In this document: positions 19,339 through 64,000 of the stretch, one piece after another | Layout of the letters: every line of letters starts with the position of its first letter | How positions within the stretch are numbered: the stretch's first letter is position 1 | Assembly: GCA_041390865.1 (NCBI GenBank) | Contig: JAWKPC010000009.1 | Coordinates: 4,933 to 68,932 of the forward strand | Length of the DNA: 64,000 nucleotides | Direction: 5' to 3' | Origin: Thermomicrobiales bacterium | GTDB lineage: Bacteria > Chloroflexota > Chloroflexia > Thermomicrobiales > CFX8 | Made by a program: the position numbers and the translations under genes | The notes under the pieces: generated by a model | The model's database searches: none | The model's input: only the letters and a program-made list of their open reading frames with translations | What the model was told of the DNA's origin: nothing

Positions 19339-19359
19339 GACGAGCCTCTTTCCCAGCCG

Positions 19360-19770: not shown

Positions 19771-19771
19771 G

Positions 19772-39527: not shown

Positions 39528-39548
39528 ACCGGCCGTCCAGCAGGAAGG

Positions 39549-41169: not shown

Positions 41170-41205
41170 CCCATTCGAATCCGAGTTGAGGAGAGAGTAC
41201 AGATA

Positions 41206-43005: not shown

Positions 43006-43020
43006 ATCGCTAGCTGATCA

Positions 43021-43045
43021 GGGGACGGCGTCTCGCGCCGTCCCC
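43021..43045 (+). other. Intercistronic stem-loop after the binding-protein gene
   Basis: GGGGACGGCG tctcg CGCCGTCCCC sits 16 nt after the stop. There is no T-tract, so it is more likely an mRNA-stabilising or attenuating hairpin than a full terminator. Confidence 0.5.
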
Positions 43046-43081
43046 TGGTTGTCAGGGTGACATGAGAGGACGGACGAACCG

Positions 43082-44951: not shown

Positions 44952-45035
44952 TCGCCTGTCGTGTCGAGCAAACGCGGAAATGCCTCTACTATTCGATCGA
45001 ACGAGCAAGTAGCCTGGGGAAGGAAACACAGGAGC

Positions 45036-46733
45036 ATGGGATCAACGACAACCCTGCACGTCACGCGGGATCTAGCAGTTTCACGAAACGGTATGGTGGC
45101 AGCCAAGCATCCGTTAGCGGTCCGCGCTGCGCTCGATATTCTCGAGCAGGGAGGCAATGCAGTCGACGCCGCTGCCACGGCGGCGTTCGCTATCGGCGTC
45201 GTCGAGCCGTGGATGAGCGGTGTTGGCGGGGTCGGCTTCATGACGATCCAGATGGCCGATGGAACCCGGAAAGTGGTCGATTACTTCGGCCGGGCGCCGC
45301 AGGCGGCGGCGGCCGACATGTACGAGCTGACCGGTGAAGAGCGCTCGGTCGTCGGTTTCGGCGGCGTCAAGGATCAGGCCAACGCCTACGGTCCGCTCTC
45401 CTGTGTCGTCCCGGGCATGGTCGCGGGCCTCTCCTACGCCGTCGAGAAGTACGGCAAGAAGGAGATCGGCGAGGTCGTCGGGCCGGCGATCCGGTTCGCC
45501 GACGAGGGTTTCGAGGTCAATTGGTACAACGGCATGCTGCTCTCGTCGCAGCAGGATACGATTCGCCGCGATCCGGAAACGACGCGGATCTTCCTTAATA
45601 ATGGATCTCCGCCCGCCCCACTCTTCGGAACCGCCAACCCGAGGATCCGGCAGCCCGAGCTGGCCGGTACGCTACGGAAGATCGCCGAGCAGGGATCGGA
45701 CGGTTTCTACAAGGGCGAGGTGGCCGAGCGAATTGGCGAGCATCTCCAGAGTGTTGGCGGGATCATCACCGCGGACGATATGGCGCGCTTCGAGCCGACC
45801 GAAGTCGATCCAATCGTCGTCGACTACCACGACTACGAGTTGCTTCTCCTGCCGTTCCAGGGTGGCGGGATCACCCTGGCGGAGTCGTTCAACATTCTCG
45901 ACGGGCTCGACATCCGCTCGACCGGCCACAACACGGCAACGACGATCCACCACATTGCTGAAGCGAGCCGGCGCGCATTCGCCGATCGCTTCGCCTACGT
46001 CGGCGATCCAGGCTTCGTCGATATTGACTGGGCAAAGCTGGCATTGAAGGAGTACGGAGAGCTTCGACGCGGCGAGATTGACTCGACACGAGCGTCGAAT
46101 CCGGGGCCCGGCGAAGGCATCCGGCTGAGCAGCGATGCGAACGGCGGTTCCGCCACCAACATGGACGAGGGATGCACGACCCACCTCTCGGTCGTCGACA
46201 AAGACGGCAATATGGTCTCGGTGACCCAGACGCTAACCCTGATCTTCGGCTCGGCGGTCACCGTCCCCGATGTCGGTGTCTTGCTCAACGATTCGATGAA
46301 CCTCTTCGAGCCGATCCCTGGGCGGGCGAACTCGATCGCGCCCTGGAAGCGGCCGGCATCGAACATGGCGCATATCGTTGCGGTGAAGGATGGACAGCCA
46401 GTGCTCGCGGTCGGCGCCCCGGGCGGCCGGCGAATCATCGACACTTGCATGCAGATGGCCTTGAATGTCCTCGATTTCGGCATGGACATCCAGTCGGCCT
46501 GTGCCGCGCCGTTGCTCGACGCATCGAGCCCGGACGAGCTCCTGGTCGATGACCGGATCAGCCAGTTTACTCGTGACAGGCTGCGTGAGATGGGCCACAA
46601 CGTCGTCGATGCTGAGGTGACTTTTGCGCCGCGTGCCTTCGCCAGCCCGACCGGCGTCACCCTTGATCCCGACACCGGTCTTCGCCACGGCGGCGCCGAC
46701 CCCTTCGGCATCGGCATCGCCGCCGGACACTAG
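45036..46733 (+). CDS. ggt: gamma-glutamyltransferase
   Basis: ..VAAKHPLAVRAALDILEQGGNAVDAA.., with the autoprocessing/catalytic Thr in ..DEGCTTHLSVVDKDGN.. and ..GAPGGRRII... ATG at 45036. Confidence 0.9.
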   Translation: MGSTTTLHVTRDLAVSRNGMVAAKHPLAVRAALDILEQGGNAVDAAATAAFAIGVVEPWMSGVGGVGFMTIQMADGTRKVVDYFGRAPQAAAADMYELTGEERSVVGFGGVKDQANAYGPLSCVVPGMVAGLSYAVEKYGKKEIGEVVGPAIRFADEGFEVNWYNGMLLSSQQDTIRRDPETTRIFLNNGSPPAPLFGTANPRIRQPELAGTLRKIAEQGSDGFYKGEVAERIGEHLQSVGGIITADDMARFEPTEVDPIVVDYHDYELLLLPFQGGGITLAESFNILDGLDIRSTGHNTATTIHHIAEASRRAFADRFAYVGDPGFVDIDWAKLALKEYGELRRGEIDSTRASNPGPGEGIRLSSDANGGSATNMDEGCTTHLSVVDKDGNMVSVTQTLTLIFGSAVTVPDVGVLLNDSMNLFEPIPGRANSIAPWKRPASNMAHIVAVKDGQPVLAVGAPGGRRIIDTCMQMALNVLDFGMDIQSACAAPLLDASSPDELLVDDRISQFTRDRLREMGHNVVDAEVTFAPRAFASPTGVTLDPDTGLRHGGADPFGIGIAAGH

Positions 46734-47201
46734 GATCTGCGCGAGCCCGTGGAGTTCCACGGACTCCGTCAGAAGCCGATGCCTGACCATCGATCAGTCC
46801 GGCGGGCGTATATACCCGCCGGACTTCCGAGTTCTGGAGTCATTGATGATAGCCAGCGGCGGTCCTGAGCCGTGATTCCAGATGCGGCGTGGAAGTAGAT
46901 CCGGATAAGAATGGTGGAGGTTCTCAAGCCTGGCTGGCCAATGAGAACCAACTCGGGAGTGCACTGCCGAAGAGTCCGACCAGGACGCTTGGGAGTCGAA
47001 TCTGTTTGGTCTTTCGTCGTCGCTCTTCATGTGATTGACTCATCTCCGGTTCTTGAGCCTTTGCCTGTGACGAAGCTGGTCTTCTCGTGGCAAGGCTATG
47101 GTGCCGCTAGACCGTCTTTGCTGCCCTGCTCTCTCAGAGACTGCCGTCGTCAAACGACACACTCGCGTCAGTACATGATGGGCCTAGGCTAGGATCTGGG
47201 T

Positions 47202-47819
47202 TCAATCTTTGGAAGCCAAGATGTTGTTGAATTCTCTAGCTCCAAGGGGCTCTGCGTTTACATGCTCGACGTTCCATAAGCCACTCTGTTGAATAGCTTC
47301 AGAGTTCGAGAATCTTCCGAGCCAGGTGTCTGATGGTGATCCCATTGGCATCTGGGCAAGAAGTGCGATTAGTCCTCGTGAAAGAGTCTTTCGATCGTCG
47401 TAGTCATTTATGGGGATGCATACAAATGAAAAATCGTCTCGTAGTAGCCGGCTGACCTGTTCTTCGACTTTTGGATCGCTGCTACCTCCCTGCTTGACCC
47501 ATTCCTCTAATCGACTGTCATTTGGATTGTGGCGGTTGAGTCACGCAGCCCCCAGATGTTTTCGGAACACAGATGAGTTCTTGTTTCCTCTGAGCGAATT
47601 CTTGTTACCAAAGTGTTGCTGGATTCGATTTGGAAGTCGTCCCGGCTTAATGTGGGTGCCGATCCGCGTGACTCTCTCGCACATTGTGGTGCCGATCTGG
47701 ATCGTTTCTCCTCGCTCAAAGAAGAAATAGACTCCGTTCGGCGGCAGTTGATCGTGCATGGAGTAGAAATCGTACCGCTGAAGTTGTGACAAGACGGCAT
47801 AGAGATCGCTGGTTATCAC
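47202..47819 (-). pseudogene. GIY-YIG-like domain protein, one frameshift near 47540 (tentative)
   Basis: ORF 47541..47819 has ..NGVYFFFERGETIQIGTT..RVTRIGTH..RLPNRIQQHF... The continuation ..EEWVKQGGSSDPKVEEQVSRLLRDDFSFVCIPINDYDDRKTLSRGLIALL..GLWNVEHVN..* is in another frame and ends at 47202. The region is low-GC. Confidence 0.45.
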
Positions 47820-47999
47820 TGTCCTTGACTCTTTCTTTCACTTGAATTGATGCTGGAACTCTTCCCGTTCCGACCGCCAATCTTGTCAGGCTTCCCGAAA
47901 AGAGACATGATTAACATAGACGGCTTAACGGAAATTCGCTCATTAACGTCCCTATTGAATTGTCTCAATGGGATTCGTTGCAGCAATCTCAGTACGTGA

Positions 48000-48062
48000 C
48001 GGGGGCGCATGGGAGTCGAACCCACCCGAGAGGCTCGTCACCCCTCACAACGGTTTTGAAGG
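48000..48062 (-). tRNA. 3' fragment of a long-variable-arm tRNA (anticodon loop to discriminator); no 5' half present
   Basis: The minus strand reads cTTCAAAA-CCGTT-GTGAGGGGTGACGAGCCTCTCGG-GTGGG-TTCGACT-CCCAT-GCGCCCCC-G. This gives a canonical T-arm, a long variable arm and an acceptor 3' strand. The complementary GGGGGCGC 5' strand is absent from the next 400 nt. The loop can be read as anticodon UCA (Sec-like, with an 8-nt acceptor strand and G73) or CAA (Leu). Confidence 0.5.
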
Positions 48063-48168
48063 ATGGAATGTGGCTTCTAGGCAAGTCCGGCAATGTCCAT
48101 TTTGCCCGTAAACATCAAGAAACCTGTCTGAGCGTTTCCAGCAAAATCCAGCCATATCCATCGGCTAA

Positions 48169-48189
48169 GGTGTCAAATTAGGTGTCAAA
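48169..48189. repeat. Direct 9-mer repeat GGTGTCAAA x2 (12-nt register) about 110 nt from the tRNA fragment
   Basis: GGTGTCAAA occurs at 48169-48177 and 48181-48189. This is a candidate recombinase arm-type or regulator site. Confidence 0.3.
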
Positions 48190-48339
48190 ACCGGTCGCCT
48201 GAGTTGCTAGTGCGTCGACGAAAGCACTTCGACAAACGTCGATTGCGGCTACTTGAATTCCCATGCTGAATGGTTCGATATCGAACGAGACGGTTTGATC
48301 GGCTCGATCGGCATGCGGGTCGCAGTTGGACCAATATCG

Positions 48340-48367
48340 TTGACAGATCCTTCATTGATGCTAATAT
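48340..48367 (+). promoter_or_regulatory. Near-consensus sigma-70-type promoter for the Lrp-family gene
   Basis: TTGACA (48340-48345), a 16-nt spacer, then TAATAT (48362-48367). AAGGAGG is at 48388-48394 and the ATG at 48398. Confidence 0.5.
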
Positions 48368-48397
48368 CCGTCAACGAACCGTGCAACAAGGAGGAAT

Positions 48398-48940
48398 ATG
48401 ACGACCGAATCAACCATCGTGCTGGATGAGTTGGATCGTGCACTGATCGCTCTTCTTCAGGAAGATGCACGGGCGAGTTACCACGAACTCGGAACAGTGC
48501 TAGGTGTCTCGCCTTCAACGGCGCGAAGGCGCACCGAACGACTGATTGATGCTGATGTCATCAAGACCGTCGTTGTCCCGAACTGGCCGAAGCTGGGCTA
48601 CAGCTTCGTCGCCCTGGTCGGTATCTCGGTCCAGCTGCTCAAGCTACGTGAAGTCGGGCGCGGGCTCATCTCAATGGATGAGGTCAACTGGGTTGCCATG
48701 ACAACCGGAGCGTTCGACCTCTTTGCCCAGATAGTGCTGCCCCGTAATCAAGACATCACCAGTTTCATCACAGAACGCCTAGCGCCCATCGACGGTATAC
48801 GCAATGTTGAAACGCTGATGGTGCCGGAATTCGTGAAGTCGTTTGAAGAGTACAGGCTGCCGCTAGAACCTAATCCTCTTTATGTGCGTACATGCCAGAA
48901 ACAGGACCCGGGTCCTAACGGGCGCGTTCCAAGGGAATAG
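48398..48940 (+). CDS. Lrp/AsnC-family transcriptional regulator
   Basis: Intact 180 aa. The HTH is LDELDRALIALLQEDARASYHELGTVLGVSPSTARRRTERL, followed by a RAM-like domain. Confidence 0.85.
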   Translation: MTTESTIVLDELDRALIALLQEDARASYHELGTVLGVSPSTARRRTERLIDADVIKTVVVPNWPKLGYSFVALVGISVQLLKLREVGRGLISMDEVNWVAMTTGAFDLFAQIVLPRNQDITSFITERLAPIDGIRNVETLMVPEFVKSFEEYRLPLEPNPLYVRTCQKQDPGPNGRVPRE

Positions 48941-49032
48941 GAGGGCGTATGGCTAGGTGCCGGTAGTCTGGCCGTTGGTCAGTCGCGACGCCGCACAACG
49001 TTGGGCAACTTCTTCTTGATGAGGGGGAAATA

Positions 49033-50831
49033 ATGGTAGATGAACGACAAGTTTCACTGACGAAGGCTCTAATGGCGCACTTTGAGTCGCTTGGAGTAAG
49101 CCGACGTCACTTTCTGAAACTACTTGCAACGGCCGGTGCAGGCGCCAGTCTCTCGGCACTCATTGTCGCTTGCGGCGGCGATGATGACGATGACGATACA
49201 TCTGGCGGTGGTGACGAGGAACCAACAGCAGCTAGTGGTGGTGCGGAACCGACCGCTACTTCTGCTGAGGAGGAAGAAGAGGAATCGGAGGACGAGCCTA
49301 CGGCAACAACTGAAGCCTCCGGAGGCGCTGGTGGCGGTGGTGAAACCGGTGTGCTCGTCGCAGCCAGTGGCCAGGACATTTCCAACCTCGACCCGCATAC
49401 CGGTCACGATTACTCTATCGCCAGCACGCAGAAGTCCGTCTATGACACCCTGCTGCGCTATCAGGGCAACCCGCCGGAACTTGAGCATGTTCTCGCGACC
49501 GATTATGAAGCGAACGAAGACGCGACTGAGTGGACGTTTACACTCGATGACCGCGCAGTTTTCCACGATGGTACACCGGTTACCGCTGATGACATCGTCT
49601 ATAACGTTGGTCGCTTGATTCGCAAGAACAAGGGACCGGCTTGGATGTTTACCAACTTCCTGGAGGAGGATGGCGCAGAGGCGATCGACGAACACACGGT
49701 GAAGCTCACGCTCACCTCGCCTTCTCGCCGCTGCCATTGATACTGCCCTGGCTCTTCATCGTCAACCAAAAAGTGGTTGCGGAACATGAGACCGATGGTG
49801 ATGAAGGTGAAGGCTGGTTGGTCGATCACGAAGCTGGCTCCGGCCCCTTCACTATTAAGAGCTGGAACGTTGGCGATTCTTACGAATTCGAAGCGCTGCC
49901 GGACTACTGGTGGGGTTGGCCCGAAGAAGGGCGGCTGTCTGGCTATATCTGGAGAATCATCCGCGAATCTTCCTCGGCTCGACTGGCGCTGCTAAGTGGT
50001 GACGTCCATATGGCATTCGACCTCGGCCCTGAAGATGTTGGTGCAATGCTTGATGAGCCGGGGTTCATCGTCAACGAGGAGCAGGGTCTCGGCGTCTTCG
50101 CCCTTAAACTCAATAACCAGGCTGGACCCACAGCGGACATCAACGTTCGCAAGGCCATAAGCTACGCAATGGACTACGAAGCGGTCGTCGATGCCCTAAA
50201 TGGCCGAGCGACCCTACTTGAAGGCCCGTTGCCGAACCTAGGGGAATACAACAATCCGAATCTGGATCTCTATCGATTCGACCTAGACAAAGCGAAGGAG
50301 GCGCTTGCGGCTAGCCCAGAGTATGCCGATGGTGGCTTTGAACTCGAATATGTCTACGTCACTGGGCTCCAGATTGAAGAGCAGATCGGCCTAATTCTGC
50401 TCGATGCCCTCTCCGAGCTGAATATCACCTTGAATCTCCAGCCGCTGGTCTGGCCGGATATGGTCGCGCGGGCAACAGAGGTTGAAACTGCCCCACATAT
50501 CATGGCGGTCTACTCGGGTACGAGCTACGGCGACCCGGACAACTTCCTCTGGCAGGCCTATCACTCTAGCCAGGCGGGCTTCTGGGCGGCAGCCTCACAT
50601 TACATGAACCCGGACTTCGACAAGTTGCTCGAAGACGCGCGAGCGACACCGGACCATGACGAGCGCGTGCAGCTTTACCATCAAGCACAAGAGATCCTAG
50701 TCAACGACGCCGTTGAAGTCTGGATTCAGAGTGAATTCTCGGACACGACCCGCAGTGAGCGAGTCGGAGGCTACGTCTTTACACCGATCATGGGTTTCTA
50801 CCTGCAACCGCTCTGGCTGAATCCAGAATAG
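49033..50831 (+). pseudogene. ABC substrate-binding lipoprotein, family 5, one frameshift near 49720
   Basis: It has TAT-like SRRHFLK, a lipobox LIVAC and an acidic tether. ORF 49033..49740 ends ..LTLTSPSRRCH*, while the continuation ..FSPLPLILPWLFIVNQKVV.. is in ORF 49641..50831. Confidence 0.8.
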
Positions 50832-50960: not shown

Positions 50961-51973
50961 ATGAATCTTGGCAGGTACATTCTCAGACGACTGATCATGC
51001 TCATCCCGGTGATCTTCGGGCTTACCATCCTCACCTTCACCCTGACCAATATCGTCCCCGGAGACCCCGCCATCTTAGCGGCCGGCCCACAGGCTAACGC
51101 CGAGATGGTCCAGCAGATTCGAGAAGAGTTTGGTCTCGATGATCCGTTGCCCGTGCAGTATGGCAACTACATCAAAGGGCTATTTGAAGGTGACTGGGGG
51201 CGCTCGATTCTTTCACGCCGTCCGGTTACCGCAGACCTGCGTGTTTACTGGCCGGCGACGCTGGAGCTGGTACTTGCCGCGATGACGATCGCCATAATCA
51301 TTGGCGTCCCTCTCGGTATTATCGCGGCGGTCAAGCACGACGAATGGCCAGACCATGCCTCACGAATCTACGCGCTGATGGGCGTCAGTCTGCCGGCATT
51401 CTGGTTAGCGCTTCTGCTGCAATGGTTCGTCGCCCTCCGCTTCGGCGTATTGCCGGTTGGGGGTCGTACCGACGTTCAGGTTGGCGCGCCTGAACACGTG
51501 ACCGGGATGTACATCCTCGACAGTATCCTGACGGCGAACTGGGCAGCACTAGAAGCATCGCTGCTTCATATCGCTTTGCCAGCCTTTACCCTGTCGATGG
51601 GTGCGCTAGCGACAATCACTCGCATGACGCGCTCGAGTATGCTGGAAGTGCTCAGCCAGGACTATATCCGAACGGCGCGTGCCAAAGGACTCGCGGAACG
51701 GCGCGTGCTGGTGCGCCACGCGCTGCGCAATGCTTCCATGCCAACCCTGACGATGATTGGCCTGTCACTTGGCTGGCTGATGGGTGGCTCGGTTCTGGTT
51801 GAAACGATCTTCGACTGGCCAGGGTTGGGCTCTACGCCGTGAACTCGGCATTGACTCTCGACTTCATGCCGATTATGGGAATCGCGCTGGTCTATGGCGT
51901 TGTGTTTAGTCTGATCAATCTGACCGTTGACGTGCTGTACGGCTTCGTTGATCCGCGCATCCGGTTCTCCTGA
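50961..51973 (+). pseudogene. ABC permease (DppB-like), frameshift near 51830
   Basis: ORF 50961..51842 ends ..IFDWPGLGSTP*. The conserved tail ..LYAVNSALTLDFMPIMGIALVYGVVFSLINLTVDVLYGFVDPRIRFS* is in another frame and ends at 51973. Confidence 0.8.
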
Positions 51974-51996
51974 GTCCGTTTGGAGGGATTCTATTC

Positions 51997-52944
51997 ATGG
52001 TTTCCGATCGAGCGCCAACAACGGAACAGGGGACAACCGCAGCGCCGGGCGAGGGGCTCGCCCAAGCGTCCGAACTCGGCACAGGCCGTACCGGCACGAC
52101 CGAATGGACTCGGCGCTGGCGACGGTTCAAGCGCAATCGACTCTCCGTCGTTGGTGCAGGTGTGATTGTGTTCCTGGCGATTATGGCCGTCGTCGGTCCC
52201 TTCGTCGCGCCCTACCCGGAAGATGCAACCGGAGCGGTCGATATCCGCAATCGCCTTCAAGCGCCAAGCAGCGACCACTGGTTTGGCACGGACGAGGTTG
52301 GACGGGATATTCTGACTCGAATCCTGGTCGGCTCGCGGCTCTCTCTGGGTGCCGGTTTCGTCGTGCTCGTTGTCGCAACAACGATCGGGACGATCCTCGG
52401 CGTCACGTCGGGCTTCTTTGGTGGTAAGGTCGATACGATTATCCAGCGGATAACCGACGTCTTCCTGACCGTACCGGGGCTTATTCTTGCAATGGCCGTC
52501 TCAGCGGCCCTTGGCCCTAGCCTCATCAACGTCGTTCTTGCGACTCTCTAGTGTGGTGGCCCGGCTATAGCCGTCTTTCGCGTGGTGAGGTGTTGCGGGC
52601 AAAGGAAGAGGTCTACGTCGAAGCGGCACGAGCAATCGGTGCTCCACAGCGCCGCATCGTGTCCCGGCATGTGATTCCGAATATCACGACACCGATCCTC
52701 GTCAAGTCCTCAATGGATATCGGCTTCGCTGTCCTGACGCTTGCGGCGTTGGGATTCATCGGACTTGGTGCCCAGCCGCCTACACCGGACTGGGGGCAAG
52801 ATGATCGCCGACGGCCGGCGCTATCTGCCAGAGTCTTGGTGGCTCACGCTCTTCCCCGGCATCGCAATCTTCCTGACGGTCTTTGCCTTCAACCTGCTCG
52901 GTGACGGTATCCGTGACGTATTCGACCCGCGTTCGCGTGACTGA
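51997..52944 (+). pseudogene. ABC permease (DppC-like), 2 frameshifts
   Basis: Three consecutive ORFs in different frames cover it (51997..52551, 52551..52904, 52741..52944), ending ..[14 protein letters not shown]. Confidence 0.8.
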
Positions 52945-52961: not shown

Positions 52962-54049
52962 ATGGCGCGCGACCTTGGTCCCGACGAGATCGAAGACATC
53001 GCCATCGGTGCGGCGGTGCTCGGCAGTGGCGGAGGTGGTGATCCCTTCATCGGCAAGCTGATGACACTCCAGTCCATCGAGCAGCACGGTCCGGTGAAGC
53101 TGGTGACGACTGACGAGCTGCCGCCGGATGGATTAGTCGTACCAGCTGCGATGATGGGGGCTCCGACGGTCGTCGTCGAGAAGATCCCGAACGGCGAAGA
53201 GCTCGGCGCGGCGTTCGATGCTCTGAGCAGTTACCTGGGCCAGGAGATCGTCGCGATCGTTCCAATTGAAGCTGGTGGACTCAACTCGATGCTGCCATTG
53301 GCGCTCTCGGCAACGCTCGGCTTGCCCGCGCTCGACCTTGACGGTATGGGGCGTGCATTTCCGGAACTCCAGATGGTGACCTTCCATCTCCACGGCATTT
53401 CCGCGACACCGATGGTCATCGCCGACGAGAAGGGCAATCAGTCACTACTTCAGACCGTCGACAACGTTTGGACCGAACGGCTGGCTCGAACACTGACGGT
53501 CCAGATGGGCGGCTCGACGATGATCGCGATCTACCCGATGACGGTCGCACAGGCTGCCGAATACGGGATTCATGGGACGATCACGCTCGCGGAGCGGTTG
53601 GGAGCTGTGCTGCGAGAATCGCGTCGCGCCGACGGTCACCAGTTGACGCACTTGTCGAAGCCGGAGGTGGTGTCAAGCTCTTCACGGGCAAGATCATCGA
53701 TGTTGAGCGGCGCACTGAAGGGGGCTTCGTACGAGGTGATGTCCAGCTTGATGGTATCGAAGGCTACTCTGGCCACCGCCTCAGTGTCTCGTTTCAGAAT
53801 GAGAATCTGGCGGCGACGCTCGACAACGAGGTAATCGCCTCTGTTCCGGATCTGATCGTGTTACTCGACCAGGAGACCGGCCTCCCGGTGACAACGGAAG
53901 CTCTCCATTACGGCTTGCGCATTGTCGTTGTGGCCTTTCCGTGTGCCGAACAGTGGCGAACTGAAGCAGGACTGGAGGTCTGTGGACCGAAATACTTCGG
54001 CTACGACATCGAATATCGACCGATAGAGACAATTCAACTGCCCTGGTAA
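52962..54049 (+). pseudogene. DUF917-family protein (paralogue 1), one frameshift near 53635
   Basis: GAAVLGSGGGGDPFIG..PIEAGGLNS..LDLDGMGRAFPELQM are in ORF 52962..53834. The C-terminal half ..KLFTGKIIDVERRTEGGFVRG..GPKYFGYDIEYRPIE.. is in ORF 53468..54049. Confidence 0.8.
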
Positions 54050-54076
54050 CGATGGGTGGGAGGGGAAGAACACAGG

Positions 54077-55645
54077 ATGAATCTGCGCCTGGGAATTGAT
54101 GTTGGTGGAACGAACACGGACGCCGTCGTGCTCGACGAGCAGTCCAACCTACTGGCCAGCTTCAAATCGCCGACGACCGCCGATGTGACCGGTGGCATAC
54201 GCAATGCGCTTTCGGGCCTCGTCGAGGGGCACCCGGAGCTCGATCTCGGCTCGATCAACTACGCGATGCTCGGAACGACGCACTGTACCAACGCGATTCT
54301 CGAACGTCGCAATCTCAATCAGGTCGGTATCGTCCGCATTGGCGCGCCGGCTACGCTCGCGATCCTGCCATTTGTCGGCTGGCCAGAGGATCTCAAGGAG
54401 GCCATCGGTGGGCACTATGCCGTCGTCGAAGGCGGTCACGAATACGACGGACGCGAAATTCGCCCACTCGGTGAAGAGGCAATCCGCGAGGCTGCCGAAT
54501 CCTTTAAGGGAAAGGTTGATTCAGTAGCGGTCGTCAGCGTCTTCTCGCCGGTCGATGCATCGCACGAAGAGCGGGCGGCGGAGATCCTAACCGAAGTCCT
54601 CGGTGATCTGCCGATGACTCACTCCTACGAGATCGGTAGTATCGGCCTGCTGGAGCGGGAAAACGCGTCGATCCTGAACGCCGCCGTCGTCAATGCCGCC
54701 AATATCGCTGCCCGCGGCTTTGAGAATGCGCTGAAGGAGCATGGCATCCACGCCGATATGTTCTTCAGCCAGAACGACGGAACGTTGATGGCGCTGGAAT
54801 ATGCCACCCGCTACCCGATCCTGACGGTCGCCAGCGGTCCGGCTAACTCAATCCGTGGCGCGGCGTTTCTGTCGCGGCTTGAAGACGCAATCGTTGTCGA
54901 CGTCGGCGGTACGTCGACCGACATCGGCATCTTGGTCAAAGGCTTCCCGCGGGAGTCATCGATTGCCGTCGATATCGGCGGGGTGCGAACGAATTTCCGT
55001 ATGCCGGACCTGATCTCGATCGCTCTCGGAGGCGGTACGCGCGTGCATACAAACGGAGACCTCCGCATCGGGCCTGACAGTGTCGGCTACCGCATCACGG
55101 AGGAGGCGCTCGTCTTCGGTGGCAATACGCTGACTCTCTCAGACATCGCAGTGGCCGACGGTCGGGCCTCGATGGGTGATCGATCCGCGCTGGATGCGGT
55201 GAATTCGGAGCTCATTGGGCAGGTGATCGACTGGATTCGGGTGTCCTGCGAAGCGACGATCGATCGGATGAAGACGAGCGCTGATCCTATGCCGGTCGTA
55301 CTCGTCGGAGGAGGTAGCGTCGTTCTTCCTACCGAACTAGCTGGGGCATCGACCGTCAACCGTCCCGAAAACTATGGCGTTGCCAATGCCATTGGGGCGG
55401 CCATCGCGCAGTGCAGTGGCGAAATCGAACGCATATTCTCCCTGGATGAATATACCCGTGACGAGGCGATGGAGATGGCCCGCCAGATGGCTCACGATGA
55501 AGCGGTCCGTGCCGGCGCAGATCCATCGACGGTCGAAATTGTCGATGTCCATGAGGTCCCGCTTGCCTACCTGCCCGGGAACGCAACGCGCATTCGGGTG
55601 CGAGCCGCCGGAGATCTCGCCCTGGTGACGGCTGCGGCAGGTTAG
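54077..55645 (+). CDS. hydantoinase/oxoprolinase-family protein (short, HyuA-like, DUF917-associated type)
   Basis: Intact. It starts MNLRLGIDVGGTNTDAVVLDE.. (ATG 54077 after GGGAGGGG) and has a second ASKHA-like motif ..AIVVDVGGTSTDIGI... Confidence 0.85.
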   Translation: MNLRLGIDVGGTNTDAVVLDEQSNLLASFKSPTTADVTGGIRNALSGLVEGHPELDLGSINYAMLGTTHCTNAILERRNLNQVGIVRIGAPATLAILPFVGWPEDLKEAIGGHYAVVEGGHEYDGREIRPLGEEAIREAAESFKGKVDSVAVVSVFSPVDASHEERAAEILTEVLGDLPMTHSYEIGSIGLLERENASILNAAVVNAANIAARGFENALKEHGIHADMFFSQNDGTLMALEYATRYPILTVASGPANSIRGAAFLSRLEDAIVVDVGGTSTDIGILVKGFPRESSIAVDIGGVRTNFRMPDLISIALGGGTRVHTNGDLRIGPDSVGYRITEEALVFGGNTLTLSDIAVADGRASMGDRSALDAVNSELIGQVIDWIRVSCEATIDRMKTSADPMPVVLVGGGSVVLPTELAGASTVNRPENYGVANAIGAAIAQCSGEIERIFSLDEYTRDEAMEMARQMAHDEAVRAGADPSTVEIVDVHEVPLAYLPGNATRIRVRAAGDLALVTAAAG

Positions 55646-55691
55646 GAAGCAGTCCTCCGTCTCAATGTCTGCTTGAAGAGGGGAACACAGT

Positions 55692-56731
55692 ATGGAATTT
55701 CTCATCGGCACCGAGATGCGGGATGAGTATTTGTCATTCGAAGTTGCTCACGCCGCGCGGAAGATGGTTGAAGAGGTCATGCCGGTGAAGGCCGGCGAAA
55801 ATGTTGTTATCTCAGCCGACACGAGCAGTGACGGGCGAGTCGTCCAGGCGACTGCCGAAGCGGTCTATGCGCTTGGCGCCCATCCAGTCGTGATCTGGTA
55901 CGAAACGCGACCCGATGCTCAGATGGAGCCACCAGGACCGGTTGCGGCCGCCCTGAAGGCTGCAGATGTCTGGTTTGAATTTGGTGTCCAGTACATCCTC
56001 TACACGGATGCGCGACGTGAAGCCACGGAGGCAGGCTGTCGACATGCCTGCTATGGCGGCATGGATGTCGAGATGTTGGTGCGGACGATCGGTCGGGTTG
56101 ACCAGGACGCCATGGGTGAGCTTGGCCGTCGCCTGCGAGAACTTTGCATGGCAGGTGAGGTAGTACGGATTACCGACACGAACGGCACTGATCTAACCTG
56201 CCCGATCGACAAGAACCCACCTTCCTATCTCGGCGGCTCAAGGCAAGATGGTGGCGGCTATTCCCAGATGCTTGGAGGTCAGTCAGGCTTCTCAGCAAAG
56301 ATCGATGAGGTCAACGGGGTAATGGTCTTTGACGGCGCGCTGTGGCCGCCAGCCGAGATCGGCCCGCTCAAGGAGCCGGTGAAGTTGACCGTCGAGAACG
56401 GCTATGTGACCAGTATCGAAGGCGGGCCGGAAGCGCCGATCTTCGAACGATGGATGGCGCATTTGGCAACCGGCAGATGTACCGCATCGCCCACTTCTCA
56501 TTTGGTTTCAATCCCGGAGTCAAGCGCATCAGTGGTCGTATCGTCGAGGATGAGCGAGTCTTCGGTTGTATGGACATCGGCATCGGGCCACAGAACCTTG
56601 GAGCGCCCAGTCACACCGACGGCATCATTCTGCGTCCGACGCTGACGGTCGACGGCGTTGAGATCGAACGCGACGGCGTGTATGTCGAGCCATCATTGGT
56701 CGAAATCTGTGAGCGCCTCGGCGTCGCCTGA
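55692..56731 (+). pseudogene. M29 / aminopeptidase-T-like (NicX-like) protein, one frameshift near 56465
   Basis: ORF 55692..56645 carries the N-terminal two-thirds. The conserved tail ..YRIAHFSFGFNPG..ERVFGCMDIGIG..HTDGIILRPTLTVDG.. is in ORF 56342..56731. The family call is from overall pattern only. Confidence 0.6.
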
Positions 56732-56766
56732 AGAGGGCCGGCTCACGCAGCTGAAGGAGTGAGGCA

Positions 56767-58011
56767 ATGGCGGCTAGCGTATTGACAAAGGAAGACCTCT
56801 GGGATCTCGTCGTTGGCGGTAGCGCGATTGCGACAGGCGGTGGAGGGACCGGCCCCACACGCGAACAATTCGACGCCTACGTCGATCCGATTCTCGAAAG
56901 CGGTGCACAGCCGTCCCTGCTCGATCCAGGCGAGCTCGACGACGATGCGATGGTGTACATGGAAGTCGGGGCTGGTGGTGGCGTCACCCGGGCTGATCGG
57001 GAGCGCTACCTATCTCCAGGTATCGCTGGTTGGTGGCGGAGAGACATCAATCGGACACAGTGGATTCGCGACCGGCTGGATGAGTATGACAATCTCTATC
57101 CAGTGGGTAGCTGGGCCGAACCGCCGGACGAGGGCTGGAACGAACAGATCGACCAGCGGATGGCCGAGCTGCACGGTGCCGAACCCGATGCCCATCTGAT
57201 CTTCGAAATCGGTCCGAATGTCTTCCGCTCGATGCTCGCGGCAGCGCAAAAGGGTAATCCGCTGATTGACGCGGACATCGCGGGCTACCGTGCAGTCCCG
57301 GAAGTATCGCTCTGTTCCTTCAACATCCACGGTGTACCGGCCCAACCGGTTCTCTTTGCGTCAGCCTGGGGCGATGTCATCGTGCTCGAACGGGTTATCT
57401 CCTGGCAACGGATGGAGGACATCGGGCGCCATCTCGCGGTCGTTAGTGGTGGCGGCGTGCGTGGATTGATGGCGTTCGACGGCGAAACCGTACGCGAGAA
57501 GACGTTCAGTGGAACCGTCTCGAAAGCGCTCGAAGTCGGGCGGGCGATCCGTGCCGCGAGAGAATCCGGTCGTGACGTCGCCCAAGCAGTAGCAGATATA
57601 ACGGATGGTCACGTGCTCTTCCGGGGCACGGTGCTGGCAAGGCTCAACGAGGATCACACCGCGTTCATCTGGGGTACCGAACGGATTCTCGGCACCGGCG
57701 AGTGGAAGGGCCAGACGTTCAAGATCTGGTACAAGAACGAGAATCACATGAGCTGGATCGATGATGCTCCATTCGTGATGTCACCGGACTTGATTACGGT
57801 GATCGATCCAGAAACTGGCTACGGGCTCTCGAACTTCGACAGTCCGGCGTGGGACTATGGTCGTGAGGTGGCGGTGCTCGGGGCCCCATGTCACCCGCTC
57901 TGGAGGAGCGAGCGCGGCTTACGCATATTCCATCCAGCCCGCTGGGGATTCGCCTGCGACTACACGCCAATCGACGAGGCGGTGGCGAAGGTCCAGGGCG
58001 GTAGCGGATGA
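56767..58011 (+). CDS. divergent DUF917-like protein (paralogue 2)
   Basis: Intact 414 aa with GGSAIATGGGGTGP, ..IFEIGPNVFRS..IDADIAGYRAVPE.. and a tail ..RIFHPARWGFACDYTPI. Same layout as DUF917 but with insertions. Confidence 0.7.
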   Translation: MAASVLTKEDLWDLVVGGSAIATGGGGTGPTREQFDAYVDPILESGAQPSLLDPGELDDDAMVYMEVGAGGGVTRADRERYLSPGIAGWWRRDINRTQWIRDRLDEYDNLYPVGSWAEPPDEGWNEQIDQRMAELHGAEPDAHLIFEIGPNVFRSMLAAAQKGNPLIDADIAGYRAVPEVSLCSFNIHGVPAQPVLFASAWGDVIVLERVISWQRMEDIGRHLAVVSGGGVRGLMAFDGETVREKTFSGTVSKALEVGRAIRAARESGRDVAQAVADITDGHVLFRGTVLARLNEDHTAFIWGTERILGTGEWKGQTFKIWYKNENHMSWIDDAPFVMSPDLITVIDPETGYGLSNFDSPAWDYGREVAVLGAPCHPLWRSERGLRIFHPARWGFACDYTPIDEAVAKVQGGSG

Positions 58012-59155
58012 CCACTCGCCAGCTCACATCTCGTACCGAGATCGAAGACTTCGTTCACGGGCTCGTATTGTTCGGCACCGGAGGTGGTGGTGGACCGGCA
58101 GCTGGGATCATCAAGCGACTCACGTCCGAATTAGCAGCGGGCACGTACATCGGCTGGACCGATATCGACGACCTTCCTGACGACACCTGGACGTTCAGTA
58201 TCGCCGGTGTTGGCGGTCGTGCTCCTGCAGAGGGACCGGATCAGGCGCTGCTTGCCCGGACTGGGCTCAGCAAGCACCGGTACGAAGACTTCGGCGATAT
58301 GCTGCTTGAGGCCGCGCGGACGCTGACCGACCTGCATGCTGTCGAGCCAGGTGCGATCATTGCCGTTGAGCTGGGCAGCAGTAACACGGTCACGCCGATG
58401 CTTGTTGCCGCCCGGCTCGGAATCCCGCTCATTGATGGCGATTACTGCGGTCGAGCCAAGCCGGAGATACAGCAGTCGATGCTTGAGATCGCTGGTCATG
58501 GCGTCTGGCCGCTCGTCTTTGTTGATCGTTGGGGCGATATTGTGCACATCCCGAACGCGGTGAGTAGCGCGATGGTTGACCGGATCGGGAGGCACCTTTG
58601 CAGCGCATCGTTCGGTGGTGTGGCCGTTGCCCGCTCGCTGCTACCCTCTGCCGATGCTCGCAACGCCATCGTCAGGGGCTCATGTGAGATGTCGCTACAA
58701 GCCGGCCGCGTTCTGCGGCAGGCTAGGGAATCCGGCGATGATCCAGTCGTGGCGATCGTTGAACACCTCGGCGGGGCACACCTGTTCGACGGCAAAGTCG
58801 AACGCATTGAAGAGGACCCTGAAAGCGGCTATCAATTCCATCTTTGTACCCACCACTTAACTGGGGAAGGGGCGTTCGATGGGAAGAAGTGTGCCGTCTG
58901 GGTGAAGAACGAACATCATATCGTCTGGGTGGATGACCGCTGCCAAGCAATGAGTCGAGACATCATTGCGCTACTCGACCGGAGCGATGGCCGGCCTCTG
59001 ACCAATCATGAGATCGAACCGGGATTGAATGTCGCCGTCATCGCGATGCCTCCACTCGACGATCGCTGGCGTTTGAAGGCGGGCATCGATCTGCTCGGCC
59101 CACGTGCCTTCGGATCGATTTCGATTACGAGCCGGTCGAAAGCCTCGTCCGGTAA
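58008..59155 (+). pseudogene. divergent DUF917-like protein (paralogue 3), 1-nt deletion about 45 nt before its stop
   Basis: ATGA overlap with paralogue 2. Motifs GLVLFGTGGGGGPAAG and ..VELGSSNTV..IDGDYCGRAKPE... The family tail IDFDYEPVESLVR** (TAA 59153-59155) is reached only by a frame change at about 59110. As assembled, the frame reads through into paralogue 4. Confidence 0.7.
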
Positions 59156-59192
59156 TGAATACCGCCACTGCCCTAGATGGAGTACGTCCAGT

Positions 59193-60320
59193 ATGACCGC
59201 AAGCCCGATCAGGCAACTGGACCTTGAGGCACTCCAGGATTTGGCAGTCGGTTCGGCGCTCCTCGGCACGGGCGGAGGCGGCGACCCATTCATCGGACGG
59301 ATCATCACCGAGCAGGCGATTCGGAAGTTCGGACCGGTTGAGGTCATTAGCCCTGATGAGCTAGTGCAGGATGATCTCGTGGTTGTCATCAGCATGTCCG
59401 GTGCGCCGACGGTCATGACCGAAAAGATTCCCAACGGCGAAGAGATGGATCGTGTCTTCAACCTCGCAGTCGAACATGCGGGATGCGACCCACGTGCTGT
59501 GATCTCCTTCGAAATTGGTGGAATGAATTCTCTCTTTCCGGTTGCCGTTGCCGCCCGGCATGGTCTGCCGCTTGTTGATGCCGATGGCATGGGAAGGGCC
59601 TTCCCCGAGTTCCAAATCACATCATTCAATGCAGGTGGCGTGCGCTTTGGTCCACGCTTCATCACAGATGAGAAAGGCAATGTCTTACGCATCGACGGGA
59701 TCGACGCAACCTGGCTCGAAAAAATAAACAGACGAGCACTCGTCGCCATGGGAGGTTCAGTCATATCGGCGATTGGTTTGACTGGCGAAGACGTCCGCCA
59801 GGCCTCGATTCATGGATCCATATCGCTGGCATGTGCGATTGGACGGACGTTAAGCAGACCAGGGGAGAGAGGTACGGGTTGGCTGCAACGGTTAGAGCAG
59901 GTCTGTCCGGTACTCCCGCTCTTCAAGGGCAAGGTCATTTCCGTCAATCGCCGCGTCGAAGGTGGCTGGGTAAAGGGACATGCCGAGATCGCTGGCCTCG
60001 AGGTTGACGGTAGTCAGACGGCCAGAATCGACTTCCAGAACGAGCATCTCCTGTTGCGATCCGATGTAGGAACCAAGACCGGACGAGTTCTCGGCTCGAC
60101 GCCGGATCTTCTCGCTGTCCTGGATAGCGAAACCGGGTTGCCGATCACGACCGAGCGGTTGCACTACGGTCAGCGTGTCACGATCATCGGTATTCCCTGC
60201 GATCCCATCTGGAGAACCGAACGTGGCTTGGAACTCGCGGGGCCGCGCTATTTCGGTTGGGATATTGAATATGTACCGATTGAGAAGCGAATGGAATCTG
60301 CATTGTTTCGTCTGTGGTAG
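59193..60320 (+). CDS. DUF917-family protein (paralogue 4)
   Basis: The ATG at 59193 gives MTASPIRQLDLEALQDLAVGSALLGTGGGGDPFIG..FEIGGMNS..VDADGMGRAFPEFQ..GPRYFGWDIEYVPIEKRME... Intact. Confidence 0.8.
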   Translation: MTASPIRQLDLEALQDLAVGSALLGTGGGGDPFIGRIITEQAIRKFGPVEVISPDELVQDDLVVVISMSGAPTVMTEKIPNGEEMDRVFNLAVEHAGCDPRAVISFEIGGMNSLFPVAVAARHGLPLVDADGMGRAFPEFQITSFNAGGVRFGPRFITDEKGNVLRIDGIDATWLEKINRRALVAMGGSVISAIGLTGEDVRQASIHGSISLACAIGRTLSRPGERGTGWLQRLEQVCPVLPLFKGKVISVNRRVEGGWVKGHAEIAGLEVDGSQTARIDFQNEHLLLRSDVGTKTGRVLGSTPDLLAVLDSETGLPITTERLHYGQRVTIIGIPCDPIWRTERGLELAGPRYFGWDIEYVPIEKRMESALFRLW

Positions 60321-60333
60321 CGATAGGTATTCC

Positions 60334-61441
60334 GTGAATATCGACGTAATTGAGCAACTTGATCTCGAGGCAGTCCAAGACCTGGCCGTAGGCTCAGCTC
60401 TCCTCGGAACCGGTGGCGGAGGTGATCCGTTCATCGGACGGATTATCGCAGAGCAAGCTATCCGGGAATTTGGGGCGGTCGAGATGATTAGACCGGAGGC
60501 ACTCGCAGACGATGACCTGGTTATCGTCGTCGGTATGGCCGGCGCGCCAACGGTCATGACAGAAAAGATCCCCAATGGAGCGGAGATAGACCGCGTCTAT
60601 AATTCTGTCATCGAACAGCTGGGACGTAGCCCGCGTGCCATGATCTCCTTCGAAATCGGCGGGATCAATTCGCTCTTCCGGTCGCTGCTGCCGCTCGACG
60701 GGGCTTAGCGCTTGTTGATGCCGACGGGATGGGGCGTGCATTTCCTGAGTTCCAGATGTCCTCTTTCAACGTTGGAGGAGTGCGGTTCTGGCCCGCTTTT
60801 TGCGGCCGATGAGAAGGGAAACGCGATACGGATCGACGGTATCGACGCGAGCTGGATCGAGCGGATTGTCCGTCAGTCTCTCGTAGCAATGGGAGGGTCG
60901 GTTATGTCGGCGATTGGCCTGACCGGGAAAGACGTCCGCCTCACTTCGATTCACGGATCCATCTCAGTTGCTTGCAGCATTGGTCGGGCGCTCAGCCGTC
61001 CAGATAAGACCACTGGAGACTGGCTTGAACGTTTGCGACAGATCTATCCCATCCTTCCGCTTTTCAGTGGGAAGGTCACTTCCATCGATCGCCGTGTTGA
61101 AGCCGGCTGGGTCCGGGGCATGCCGTCGTCACAGGGCTTAGAGAAGACGCGCACCAGCAAGCGAGGATCAATTTCCAGAACGAGCATCTCTTACTTCGAT
61201 CTACCGTCGGAGACAACGGCGGTCAGATTCTTGGCTCGACACCGGATCTTCTCGCTGTTCTCGACAGCGAGACAGGATTGCCCATTACGACCGAGAGATT
61301 GCACTATGGACAGCGCGTCACGATCGTTGGTATTCCTGCGATCCCATCTGGAGAACCGAACGTGGCTTGGAACTCGCGGGGCCGCGCTATTTCGGTTGGG
61401 ATATTGAATATGTACCGATTGAGAAGCGAATGGAAGCGTAG
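60334..61441 (+). pseudogene. DUF917-family protein (paralogue 5), tandem duplicate of paralogue 4 with at least 4 indels
   Basis: The GTG at 60334 gives VNIDVIEQLDLEAVQDLAVGSALLGTGGGGDPFIG... It is colinear with paralogue 4 throughout but needs frame changes at about 60685, 60790, 61130 and 61336. It ends ..IEKRMEA* at 61439-61441. Confidence 0.75.
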
Positions 61442-61539
61442 CTGGAATCACCTATATATCTCTTGCAGCACGGCAAGCGGACAGCAGCGTAGGGATCGCT
61501 GGAGACGACGAGAAACCAGAGTAGTAAAGGAGCAGAGAT

Positions 61540-62631
61540 ATGCCGTGGGATCTAACACATGAAGACGTCGAGCGGATAGCGATTGGCGCCGGGATTCTCG
61601 GCACCGGCGGCGGCGGAATCCCTATCGGGGAATGATTCGAGCCCAGCATCAACTCGAACTGGGCCGCAAGCTGACGATCGTCAAGCTGGACGAATTGCCG
61701 GATGATGCGCTCGTCGTCCCGATGGGTGGAATGGGAGCCCCGACGGTCGGACTGGAGAAGATCGGACGGGGTGACGAGGGAAAGGTAGCAGTTGAGGCGA
61801 TGAGAGACTATCTCGGCGTCGACATCGTGGCGACCGCTCCGATCGAGATCGGTGGTGGCAATTCCTTCGCACCGATGATCGCTTCTGCCCACCTCGGGAT
61901 CCCGACCGTCGACGTTGATGGGATGGGACGGGCTTTTCCGGAAGGCTCAATGATTAGCTATTATTTCGACGGTGTTGCGGCATCTCCGATCGTTATGGTC
62001 GATTCGCAGCACCAGAAGATTATCCTCGAAAATGTTGCCCCACACCCGTTCGCTCGAGCGAATATCCCGAGCGATCTGTGTCCAGCTCGGTGGCAGTGCG
62101 ATGGTTGTCGACGAACCGTTGACGGTCAAGAAACTGAAGGAAACCGGCATTCCGGACACCATCACACTGGCTTACCGTGTCGGTGACGCGGTGAAGGCAG
62201 CTCAAGCGACTGGCGCGGACCCGATCCAGGCCGTGTGTGAAGCGAACGAAGGGCGCATTCTCTTCGCCGGCAAGATTACCGACGTGGACCGCCGGGTCGA
62301 ACGCGGTTACAACTTCGGCCGTCTCAAGATCGACGGCCTTGATACCTACCAGGGCAGTCAGGCGACGATTGATCTCCAGAACGAGTTCCTGATCTGCCGG
62401 GTTGACGGTGAGATGGTCGCAATCGTCCCGGATCTCATCACTATGGTCGATACCGAGCGAGGTGAGCCGATCACGACTGAGGTCGTTCGCTACGGTCTCC
62501 GGGTCACGGTCATCGGGATGCCTGCGCCGCCGCAACTCACGACCGAACAAGCAATGCAGTTTGTCGGTCCTCAGGCATTCGGCTATGACGAGCCGTATGT
62601 GCCATTCAAGACGCTGGTAGCTGCGGTCTGA
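61540..62631 (+). pseudogene. DUF917-family protein (paralogue 6), 2 frameshifts
   Basis: AAGGAG precedes the ATG at 61540, giving MPWDLTHEDVERIAIGAGILGTGGGG... It continues in ORF 61632..62186 (..PIEIGGGNSF..VDVDGMGRAFPE..) and then ORF 61972..62631 (..GPQAFGYDEPYVPFKTLVAAV*). Confidence 0.75.
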
Positions 62632-62670
62632 GATGGCACGATCAATTCGAGGCGTACGGAGGCTCGACTG

Positions 62671-64000
62671 GTGATTGGAAACGAGAAGGGAAGTGGAATC
62701 CTCCTCGGTATCGATATCGGCGGAACGTTCACCGACGTTGTCGTCTACGATCCCGAGAACGGCAATCTCCACATGGCGAAAGCACCCTCAAATCCGACCC
62801 AGCCAGCTTCGGCTTTTTTCGCCGGAATCGACAAGGTGTTCAGTGAGCAGCATCTCGAGAGCAGACAGCTTGCTCGGATTCTGCATGGCAGCACGGTCGC
62901 GACGAACGCCGTGCTCGAAGGCTCGGGGAGCCGGCTTGGACTGATTACGACCGAGGGATTTGGTCATATCCTGGAGATCGGGCGTGCCTATATCCCAGGG
63001 ATCTTCACCAACTACATGCGCTGGGAAAAGCCTGAGCGTCTCGTTCCCCTCCAGAGCGTTGTCGAGATTCCCGAACGTCTCGCGGTGAACGGTTCCATAG
63101 TGCGGGAATTCAACGATGATCTTGCCCACGAACGTATCGCGGTGCTGATCGCGTCGGGCGTCGAAGCAATCGCTGTCTCTCTCTTGCATAGTTATGTAAA
63201 TCCCGATCACGAGCGGCGTGTTGCGGAGATCATCCATGAGATCGCGCCGGACATGCCAGTATCGCTCTCATCGGACATCCTGCCGGAATACCGTGAATAT
63301 GAGAGGACCATGACAACGGTTCTCAACTCCTTCGTCATGCCTGCGGTTTCACGGTACCTCGGCGAGATTGGAAATGGGCTTGAATCGCGCGGTATCGATG
63401 CAGATCTCCACATCGTCCGTTCCGATGCCGGAGTGATGAGCCTGGCGGCAGCGCGGGAGCGGCCGGTTAACACGGTCCTCTCAGGGCCGGCCGGAGGCGT
63501 TCAGGCAGCGGCGCATCTGGCCGACGCAGCCGGATTCCCGCACATCGTCTCGCTTGACATGGGCGGGACATCGACGGATGTCTGTCTGAGCACGTCGGCC
63601 GAGCCACGGCTTTCGACCGACACCTGGGTATCTCATTATCCGATCAAGGTGCCGATCATCGACATCACGACGATCGGAGCCGGCGGCAGTTCGTCGCCTA
63701 CGTATCCTCCGCCGGAGCCTTGCGGGTCGGACCGCGCAGCTGGGGCCGACCCGGTCCCGCCTGCTACGGGCGCGGCGGCACGGCCCCGACCGTTACCGAC
63801 ACTAACCTGGTCCTGGGCCGTTTGCCGGTCAAGCTAGCCGGCGGCGAGATCGAACTGGATGTCGAACGTTCCCGCGACGCCATCGAGAGAGATTGCCAAA
63901 CCGCTTGCTATGTCCGTAGAGGATGCCGCCTACGGCATCTCTTCGCATCGTCAACGAGAACATGCTCGGCGCGCTGAGGGTTGTCAGTGTCCAGCGAGGG
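62671..64000 (+). pseudogene. N-methylhydantoinase A / oxoprolinase (HyuA-type), at least 2 frameshifts, runs off the window
   Basis: GILLGIDIGGTFTDVVVYD.., ..DMGGTSTDVCL.. and ..DITTIGAGGSS are in ORF 62671..63837. The continuation ..LRVGPRS..GPACYGRGGTAPTVTDTNLVLGRL.. is in ORF 63720..63977, then ..AKPLAMSVEDAAYGI.. is in a third frame. Confidence 0.8.

Follow-up and report, generated by a model that had tools for sequence, protein, structure and literature searches.

The 64,000-nt stretch of a Thermomicrobiales bacterium analysed here (GenBank assembly GCA_041390865.1, contig JAWKPC010000009.1, positions 4,933 to 68,932; hereafter the window) carries, on its forward strand at 52962–64000, six DUF917 genes together with genes for a short HyuA-like ATPase and a NicX-like protein and the start of a full-length HyuA gene. 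From 5′ to 3′, the order is D1, short HyuA-like gene, NicX-like gene, D2, D3, D4, D5, D6 and HyuA, D1 to D6 being the DUF917 copies; this order, read from the sequence alone in an earlier note, was confirmed by translation and tblastn. The locus can be regarded as a large form of a DUF917/short-HyuA cluster type that recurs and is biochemically uncharacterised. In our best explanation, to which we give an even chance as a whole, it represents an accessory operon for catabolism, under AsnC/Lrp control, in a Thermomicrobiales-like bacterium (Chloroflexota), and its DUF917 array comprises dispensable specificity variants that share one ATPase and process imported hydantoin-like cyclic amides.

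Gene positions in the window were determined by three-frame translation and by tblastn with the two intact copies, D4 and D2, and frame-corrected translations were obtained by frameshift-aware alignment against intact orthologues. Pfam scans of D1, D3, D5 and D6 used these corrected translations. All six copies matched PF06032 (S-Me-THD_N, 67–199 bits) and PF20906 (S-Me-THD_C, 153–244 bits) over their full length and in N-to-C order, far above the domain cut-off of 27 bits; the expectation that a hidden Markov model search would place the six open reading frames (ORFs) in one family was thus borne out. The same invariant residues were kept in all of them (GGG loop, E107, N112, D129-x-D131...G-R-A-x-P-E, N283-E284 and D305). 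Identity to D4 was 29%–45%, except for D5, which reached 75% after correction.

Judged by their sequences, the six copies are old paralogues belonging to four clades. A neighbour-joining tree built with the 170 DUF917 sequences of the fetched loci placed D1 (52962–54049; 199 and 244 bits for the two domains after correction), D4 (59193–60320, intact; 173 and 195 bits) and D5 (60334–61441) in one large clade, type 9, and D6 (61540–62631) in a separate monophyletic clade, type 8. D2 (56767–58011, intact) and D3 (58008–59155) represented two small clades, in which an insertion of 25–40 aa takes the place of a PTVxxEKIPNG motif. The description of D2 and D3 as divergent and insertion-bearing therefore agreed with the alignment, whereas D6, described as canonical together with D1, D4 and D5, fell outside the clade of these three. 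The D2 type, assigned by Pfam and alignment, is rare, with about six full-length clusters among 1.84 billion representatives at 50% identity; the family had 1,672 matches there and comprises about 1,700 clusters at that identity level. For D3, about 25 intact orthologue clusters of 380–385 aa (63%–85% identity) were found, including metagenome-assembled genomes (MAGs) of Thermomicrobiaceae and Nitrolancea; intact orthologues of 382 aa reached 85% identity. The closest homologue of D4 in the protein collection was 83% identical. D5 is a tandem duplicate of D4 with 72%–74% nucleotide identity over most of the gene, and the 3′ tracts of the two genes (60196–60296 and 61335–61435) are 100% identical over 101 nt. 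No such tract was seen between the orthologous D4/D5 pair (Da/Db) of a related locus, L001, and the identity suggests gene conversion between the tandem paralogues.

The short HyuA-like gene (54077–55645) is intact and encodes an ASKHA ATPase with Hydant_A_N and Hydantoinase_A domains. Its two D-x-G-G-T phosphate-binding motifs both read DVGGT, at residues 15 and 282 (numbered from a GTG at 54056); the full-length HyuA has the same two domains and its motifs at residues 15 and 296. The short protein thus shares the ATPase core and both ASKHA motifs with the HyuA/HyuB-type ATP-dependent lactamases (N-methylhydantoinase, 5-oxoprolinase and CapAB), but it lacks Hydant_A_C, and the neighbours of its gene are DUF917 and NicX genes rather than HyuB. 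A separate true HyuA lies at the end of the operon, with HyuB in relatives. Against the caprolactamase alpha model NF050156 (cut-off 1000), the short protein scored 104 bits. The HyuA orthologue of locus L002 scored 540 bits, and both remained below the cut-offs of 1000–1500 for caprolactamase alpha and the acetophenone carboxylase subunits. In caprolactamase, the CapA aspartates that correspond to those of the two motifs, D11 and D295, belong to the ATP site and are required for activity, and CapB holds the metal site (PMC8453981). The split proposed here between an ATPase and a substrate-handling subunit is modelled on this pair.

The DUF917 and short HyuA-like genes are near-obligate neighbours. 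This was observed in two sets of loci, both limited to the best 80 loci by similarity to the window's genes and thus not unbiased surveys of the family. Sample 1 consisted of 83 non-redundant DUF917-anchored loci, mostly from a scan of genome contigs (best matches Thermomicrobiaceae and Chloroflexia MAGs, 61%–64%), and genes were counted within ±10 kb; sample 2 consisted of 80 loci from metagenomes, with the short HyuA-like gene as the anchor. A short HyuA-like gene occurred within 10 kb in 80 of the 83 loci of sample 1, and DUF917 was present in 70 of the 80 loci of sample 2, the remaining ten being contigs of about 1.9–10 kb. Loci of sample 1 with four or more DUF917 copies always had exactly one short HyuA-like gene. 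Such adjacency suggested that the two proteins work together, with DUF917 occupying the place of HyuB or CapB. A physical partnership, ATP dependence and, from the neighbouring genes, a substrate class are our inferences; the literature searched contained no biochemistry for this partnership.

A single copy was the usual arrangement. In sample 1, zero to six DUF917 copies were counted in 1, 38, 25, 8, 5, 4 and 2 loci, respectively; in sample 2, zero, one, two, three, four and six copies were counted in 10, 49, 15, 4, 1 and 1 loci. The view that DUF917 genes typically occur singly beside a hydantoinase/oxoprolinase-family gene is upheld by the latter set, in which 49 of the 70 ATPase-anchored loci holding any DUF917 had exactly one. 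The lone copy was of type 9 in 48 of these 49 loci, and the exception, L089, also contained a partial type 9; the other types therefore occurred only alongside type 9. In Thermoanaerobacter and Brevibacillus, for example, a type 9 gene and a short HyuA-like gene are adjacent and often overlap. Compared with such pairs, the window combines six DUF917 genes from four clades with a single ATPase and has an ATP-binding cassette (ABC) importer instead of an NCS1 transporter; its operon type also includes NicX-like, HyuA/HyuB and DUF1177 genes, and it lacks a racemase gene.

Nor is the array unique, since arrays of three to six copies recurred in the locus samples, mainly in Chloroflexota genomes. 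Arrays of five or six copies with the order 8-(ATPase)-9-9-9-(9)-8 and SBP_bac_5-type importer genes were found repeatedly in MAGs of Anaerolineae, Phototrophicaceae and Aggregatilineales. These arrays (L015, L020, L022, L025 and L036) and those of Thermomicrobiaceae (L006, L091 and L170) share with the window three to six DUF917 genes of mixed types 8 and 9, one short HyuA-like gene and a single coding strand. All include SBP_bac_5-type permeases, and the substrate-binding protein (SBP) itself was seen in L022. The Anaerolineae-type arrays, ordered 8-(ATPase)-9-9-9-8, differ from the window in lacking NicX and the D2 and D3 types. Six was the highest number of full-length copies counted in any fetched locus, which the window equals, and of the fetched loci that follow the window's gene order, no other had as large a set. 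We found no description of such arrays in the literature searched.

The closest relatives carry the same operon with two to six DUF917 copies in different sets; one short HyuA-like gene and one NicX gene accompany them in every case, and each of the six paralogues has intact orthologues in related metagenomic loci. L170 (NCBI GCA_041743225.1) reads D1-HyuAs-NicX-D2-D3-D4-D6-HyuA (HyuAs, short HyuA-like gene), that is, the window's operon minus D5, with 80%–91% identity per gene (D1, 88%–89%; short HyuA-like gene, 91%). L002/L003 (JGI/Logan) opens with AsnC, SBP and two permease genes, followed by D1, D2, a D3 remnant, D4 and D6, with HyuA, HyuB and DUF1177 downstream. L001 (ENA) has D2, D4, D5 and D6 without D3. 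Of three metagenome loci, L087 has D2, D3, D4 and D6 and lacks D1 and HyuA/B, L088 has D1, D4 and D6 without D2 or D3, and L089 has only D1 and D6. Six or more copies in a different order occur in L006 and L091 (Thermomicrobiaceae MAG and metagenome, respectively). The short HyuA-like gene, NicX, one or more type 9 copies and the type 8 copy form the constant part of the operon, and each of the remaining paralogues is lacking somewhere; D6 was kept in all related NicX-type loci whose contig reaches downstream of NicX. The D3 remnant of L002 (9604–9906) is a 100-aa ORF joining the N- and C-terminal ends of a D3-type protein through an in-frame internal deletion, and it shows that a relative has indeed lost one of the array's genes.

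In the proposed mechanism, the SBP_bac_5 importer would take up small peptide-like or cyclic-amide nitrogen compounds, and a DUF917 (S-Me-THD-like) protein and the short HyuA-like ATPase would form the working unit. By analogy with HyuA/HyuB and CapA/CapB, the ATPase would provide ATP-dependent activation, and the DUF917 protein would bind the ring substrate, a hydantoin-like cyclic amide or ureide with a five-membered ring, and catalyse the reaction on it. Individually dispensable and served by one common ATPase, the six paralogues would broaden the range of substrates or steps around an operon core formed by a type 9 and a type 8 copy. Additional steps or substrates might fall to the NicX-like metalloenzyme, HyuA/HyuB and DUF1177. 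We also put forward, tentatively and as less likely than not, a broader idea in which DUF917 proteins are interchangeable catalytic modules, each with its own substrate specificity, that dock on one common short HyuA-like ATPase and make up a modular, ATP-dependent cyclic-amide/ureide platform distinct from HyuA/HyuB. Arrays could then be specificity libraries gained and lost gene by gene between strains around the type 9 and type 8 core.

Several neighbourhoods hint at the substrate class. The DUF917/ATPase pair lies with an NCS1 transporter gene (PF02133, the family that includes the hydantoin permease Mhp1) and a gene of the Asp/Glu/hydantoin racemase family (PF01177) in Thermoanaerobacter and Brevibacillus. 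Creatininase-family genes directly follow the short HyuA-like gene in L117, L118, L127 and L131, and two more lie upstream in the window. Furthermore, the only named members of the family are (S-methyl)thiohydantoin desulfurases (NF058529 and NF058532), which share PF06032 and PF20906 with the window copies and probably act, likewise, on a five-membered hydantoin-type ring. The statement that DUF917 function is poorly defined is partly dated in view of these two characterised equivalogs in NCBIfam, although the window copies fall far below their cut-offs. A preprint described DUF917 as not experimentally characterised (10.1101/2023.09.25.559410), and the literature searched contained nothing on DUF917 function.

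Some results weigh against this assignment. The window copies scored 49–84 bits against the desulfurase cut-offs of 440 and 450 (62 and 84 bits for D4, 49 and 53 bits for D2); compared with the desulfurase genes, they have no ergothioneine-pathway genes nearby, occur in six copies and are tied to a short HyuA-like ATPase. The SBP_bac_5 importer points to peptides or opines rather than hydantoins, and the substrate class suggested here comes from gene neighbourhoods. The fold offered no catalytic clue: the AlphaFold2 model of D4 (mean predicted local distance difference test score, pLDDT, 89) matched the DUF917 structure 2o3i (CV_3147) with a template modelling score of 0.78 (E 6e-21), and besides this uncharacterised protein nothing was found below E 0.01. 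The earlier interpretation as a multi-substrate catabolic island is nevertheless favoured, as close relatives carry the same operon with different paralogue subsets.

An obligate hetero-oligomer, in which the DUF917 paralogues would be subunits together with the short ATPase (e.g., a type 9 and type 8 core plus D2/D3), is unlikely in our judgement, although several patterns are in line with it. Types 9 and 8 co-occur repeatedly, in the orders 9-8, 8-9-8 and 8-9-9-9-8, and the fetched NicX-type loci sequenced on both sides of the HyuAs-NicX pair all keep at least one type 9 copy and D6. The stop codon of D2 overlaps the start codon of D3 by 4 nt (ATGA), and type 8 and the D2 and D3 types were never seen without type 9. 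However, a type 9 gene alone with the ATPase outnumbered every other arrangement by a wide margin (48 loci); type 9 thus does not depend on a second DUF917. In addition, D1, D2, D3, D4 and D5 are each absent from some close relative. The invariant residues are also the same in all six copies, none of which looks purely structural. Alternative specificities are therefore favoured over an obligate complex by the gene-by-gene presence and absence among close relatives, with one ATPase throughout, and the constant pairing of types 9 and 8 leaves room for a hetero-pair core. We regard it as very improbable that the operon is a biosynthetic cluster modifying a peptide-derived secondary metabolite. 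DUF917 genes have been reported to be enriched in cyclodipeptide-oxidase (CDO) clusters without a cyclodipeptide synthase (CDPS) (bioRxiv 10.1101/2023.09.25.559410), and a LanC-like/HopA1 gene set lies elsewhere in the window. The operon itself, however, opens with an amino-acid-type regulator and an importer and contains no CDPS, non-ribosomal peptide synthetase, CDO or exporter gene, and its neighbours are amidase, creatininase-family and gamma-glutamyltranspeptidase genes.

As assembled, many genes of the locus are interrupted. Compared with orthologues, at least 15 lesions were found at 49.7–64 kb, 11 of them within the array; all were 1-nt indels (11 deletions and four insertions), mostly in runs of two to five identical bases, and no nonsense codon or larger deletion was among them. 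Single deletions lie in D1 (near 53630), the NicX-like gene (near 56462), D3 (near 59113) and the SBP gene (near 49717), three indels in the permease genes (near 51825, 52543 and 52794), four in D5 (near 60673, 60789, 61114 and 61335), two in D6 (near 61615 and 62036) and at least two or three in HyuA (near 63691, 63870 and 63940). The claim that most members carry one to four indels is correct for these four DUF917 copies, but D2 and D4 are intact. The deletion near 59113 fuses D3 and D4 in frame into a single 770-aa ORF in the assembly.

Consensus errors in the assembly are the most likely source of these indels, more so than gene decay, because patchy, indel-only damage without evolutionary consequence resembles the errors of noisy long-read or low-coverage assemblies. 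The suggestion that the array may be decaying was thus not upheld. If the operon had recently been inactivated in the window's lineage and were accumulating frameshifts, which we consider rather unlikely, nonsense codons would be expected; with an assumed nonsense fraction of one third, finding none among at least 15 lesions has a chance of roughly 0.002. Larger deletions are likewise absent, and ribosome-binding sites and start codons are kept. The lesion-bearing genes retained 75%–91% identity to their orthologues, with D6, despite two lesions, 91% identical to that of L001, and a relative-rate test with L002 as the outgroup gave 86 versus 74 unique changes (p 0.34), indicating no excess amino-acid change or acceleration in the window's lineage. 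A similarly indel-dense patch occurs outside the island, in a Ser/Thr kinase gene (13119–13902, reverse strand) with five frameshifts and one in-frame stop within 13599–13850, where each fragment keeps its canonical motifs and the C-lobe is clean. On the side of decay, the genes at 28.9–46.7 kb, with some 16 kb of coding sequence, showed no frameshift, and the large genes of the first 28 kb are mostly intact, with their domains complete, so that the damage is patchy and some real local decay may have occurred. Deletions outnumber insertions (11:4), and D3 has truly been lost in relatives (the remnant in L002 and its absence from L001). A composition break near 46.7 kb separates upstream genes with a GC content at third codon positions (GC3) of 0.78–0.82 from the island with 0.62–0.70, but low GC3 was discarded as evidence of decay, since L170, an intact relative, shows the same values. 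A codon-usage Viterbi gene model for calling frameshifts was discarded as too crude; several of its candidates (AzlC and MOSC) turned out to be intact, with spurious ORFs lying across them. Without read-level support, the frameshifts of the locus should not be taken as pseudogenisation.

The partner gene described earlier as M29-like (55692–56731) is better assigned to the NicX family, which has an M29-like fold, and encodes a putative metalloenzyme. Peptidase_M29 (PF02073) scored 15.9 bits (E 0.006), below the 27-bit threshold and over 50 N-terminal residues only, whereas PF26233 is recorded for orthologues with 74%–90% identity. The best PDB match was NicX, a 2,5-dihydroxypyridine 5,6-dioxygenase (7cn3), at E 3.8e-7 over about 200 residues only; the window's operon differs from the nicotinate pathway in having none of its genes. 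In Pseudomonas putida NicX, a His-His-Asp triad provides the Fe(II) ligands, and the first His, His265 of this enzyme, aligns with a His of the L001 orthologue. The window protein has an H-T-D motif near its C terminus, outside the reported 7cn3 alignment. The full-length HyuA gene (62671–64000, cut by the window end), identified by Pfam, encodes the alpha subunit of an ATP-dependent hydantoinase/oxoprolinase/lactamase; in L002, its orthologue carries Hydant_A_C, and HyuB and DUF1177 come next. In the region of L002 that contains DUF1177 downstream of the array (16281–20926), genes in divergent orientation were also observed, one for a YbdK/GCS2 carboxylate-amine ligase and two with weak ATP-grasp matches (E 4e-5 and 0.12). 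In L087, DUF1177 (16073–17050) directly follows D6, and HyuA/HyuB are absent there.

Upstream of the array lie an intact AsnC/Lrp-type regulator gene (48398–48940; AsnC-type HTH and AsnC_trans_reg domains), an SBP_bac_5 gene of a peptide/opine-type ABC importer (49027–50831) and two permease genes (50979–52944; about 50979–51973 and about 52012–52944), all on the forward strand. Orthologues of the regulator are the first genes of L002, L087 and L088. The SBP is 70% identical to that of L002 by frameshift-aware alignment, with PF00496 in the orthologue, and the permease orthologues carry BPD_transp_1 and OppC_N. The importer has its SBP and both permeases, and the operon has no ATPase gene for it, as in L002, L087 and L088. 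Intergenic gaps are 10–100 nt with purine-rich ribosome-binding sites. The best sigma-70-like site (48340–48367) lies just upstream of the regulator gene, but a promoter and terminator scan gave site counts not above those of shuffled sequences.

The window's genes further upstream were shared by none of the fetched loci, and scanning the window for tRNAs and Rfam families revealed no mark of an integration site. Between the gamma-glutamyltranspeptidase and regulator genes, about 1.7 kb (46750–48400) has a low GC content (about 0.50–0.56) and contains no convincing ORF, tRNA or Rfam match; a 92-aa ORF (47541–47819, reverse strand) had no Pfam match. The GC3 break falls at this stretch. A second amide/peptide-catabolism block (38733–46733), all intact, comprises two creatininase-family genes around an RraA-like gene, an SBP_bac_5 gene, two permease genes and the gamma-glutamyltranspeptidase gene. 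On the reverse strand at 23237–26500, a LanC-like gene (451 aa), a HopA1-family gene (387 aa) and an APH/kinase-like fragment, which covers only the C-terminal third of its profile, lie in a row and resemble a split lanthipeptide-synthetase-like set. The first 2.7 kb or so of the window (1–2786) was non-coding by a crude codon model, with a GC content of 0.52 in the first 2 kb and no RNA-family or tRNA match.

Only two activities have been assigned to DUF917 proteins, both of them thiohydantoin desulfurases. A locus type that combines four clades, one ATPase, an importer and a regulator in one operon, and that varies naturally gene by gene, offers a panel for finding substrates and lends itself to testing whether a single ATPase works with several catalytic partners. 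The answer has implications for the use of cyclic-amide nitrogen compounds by soil Chloroflexota.

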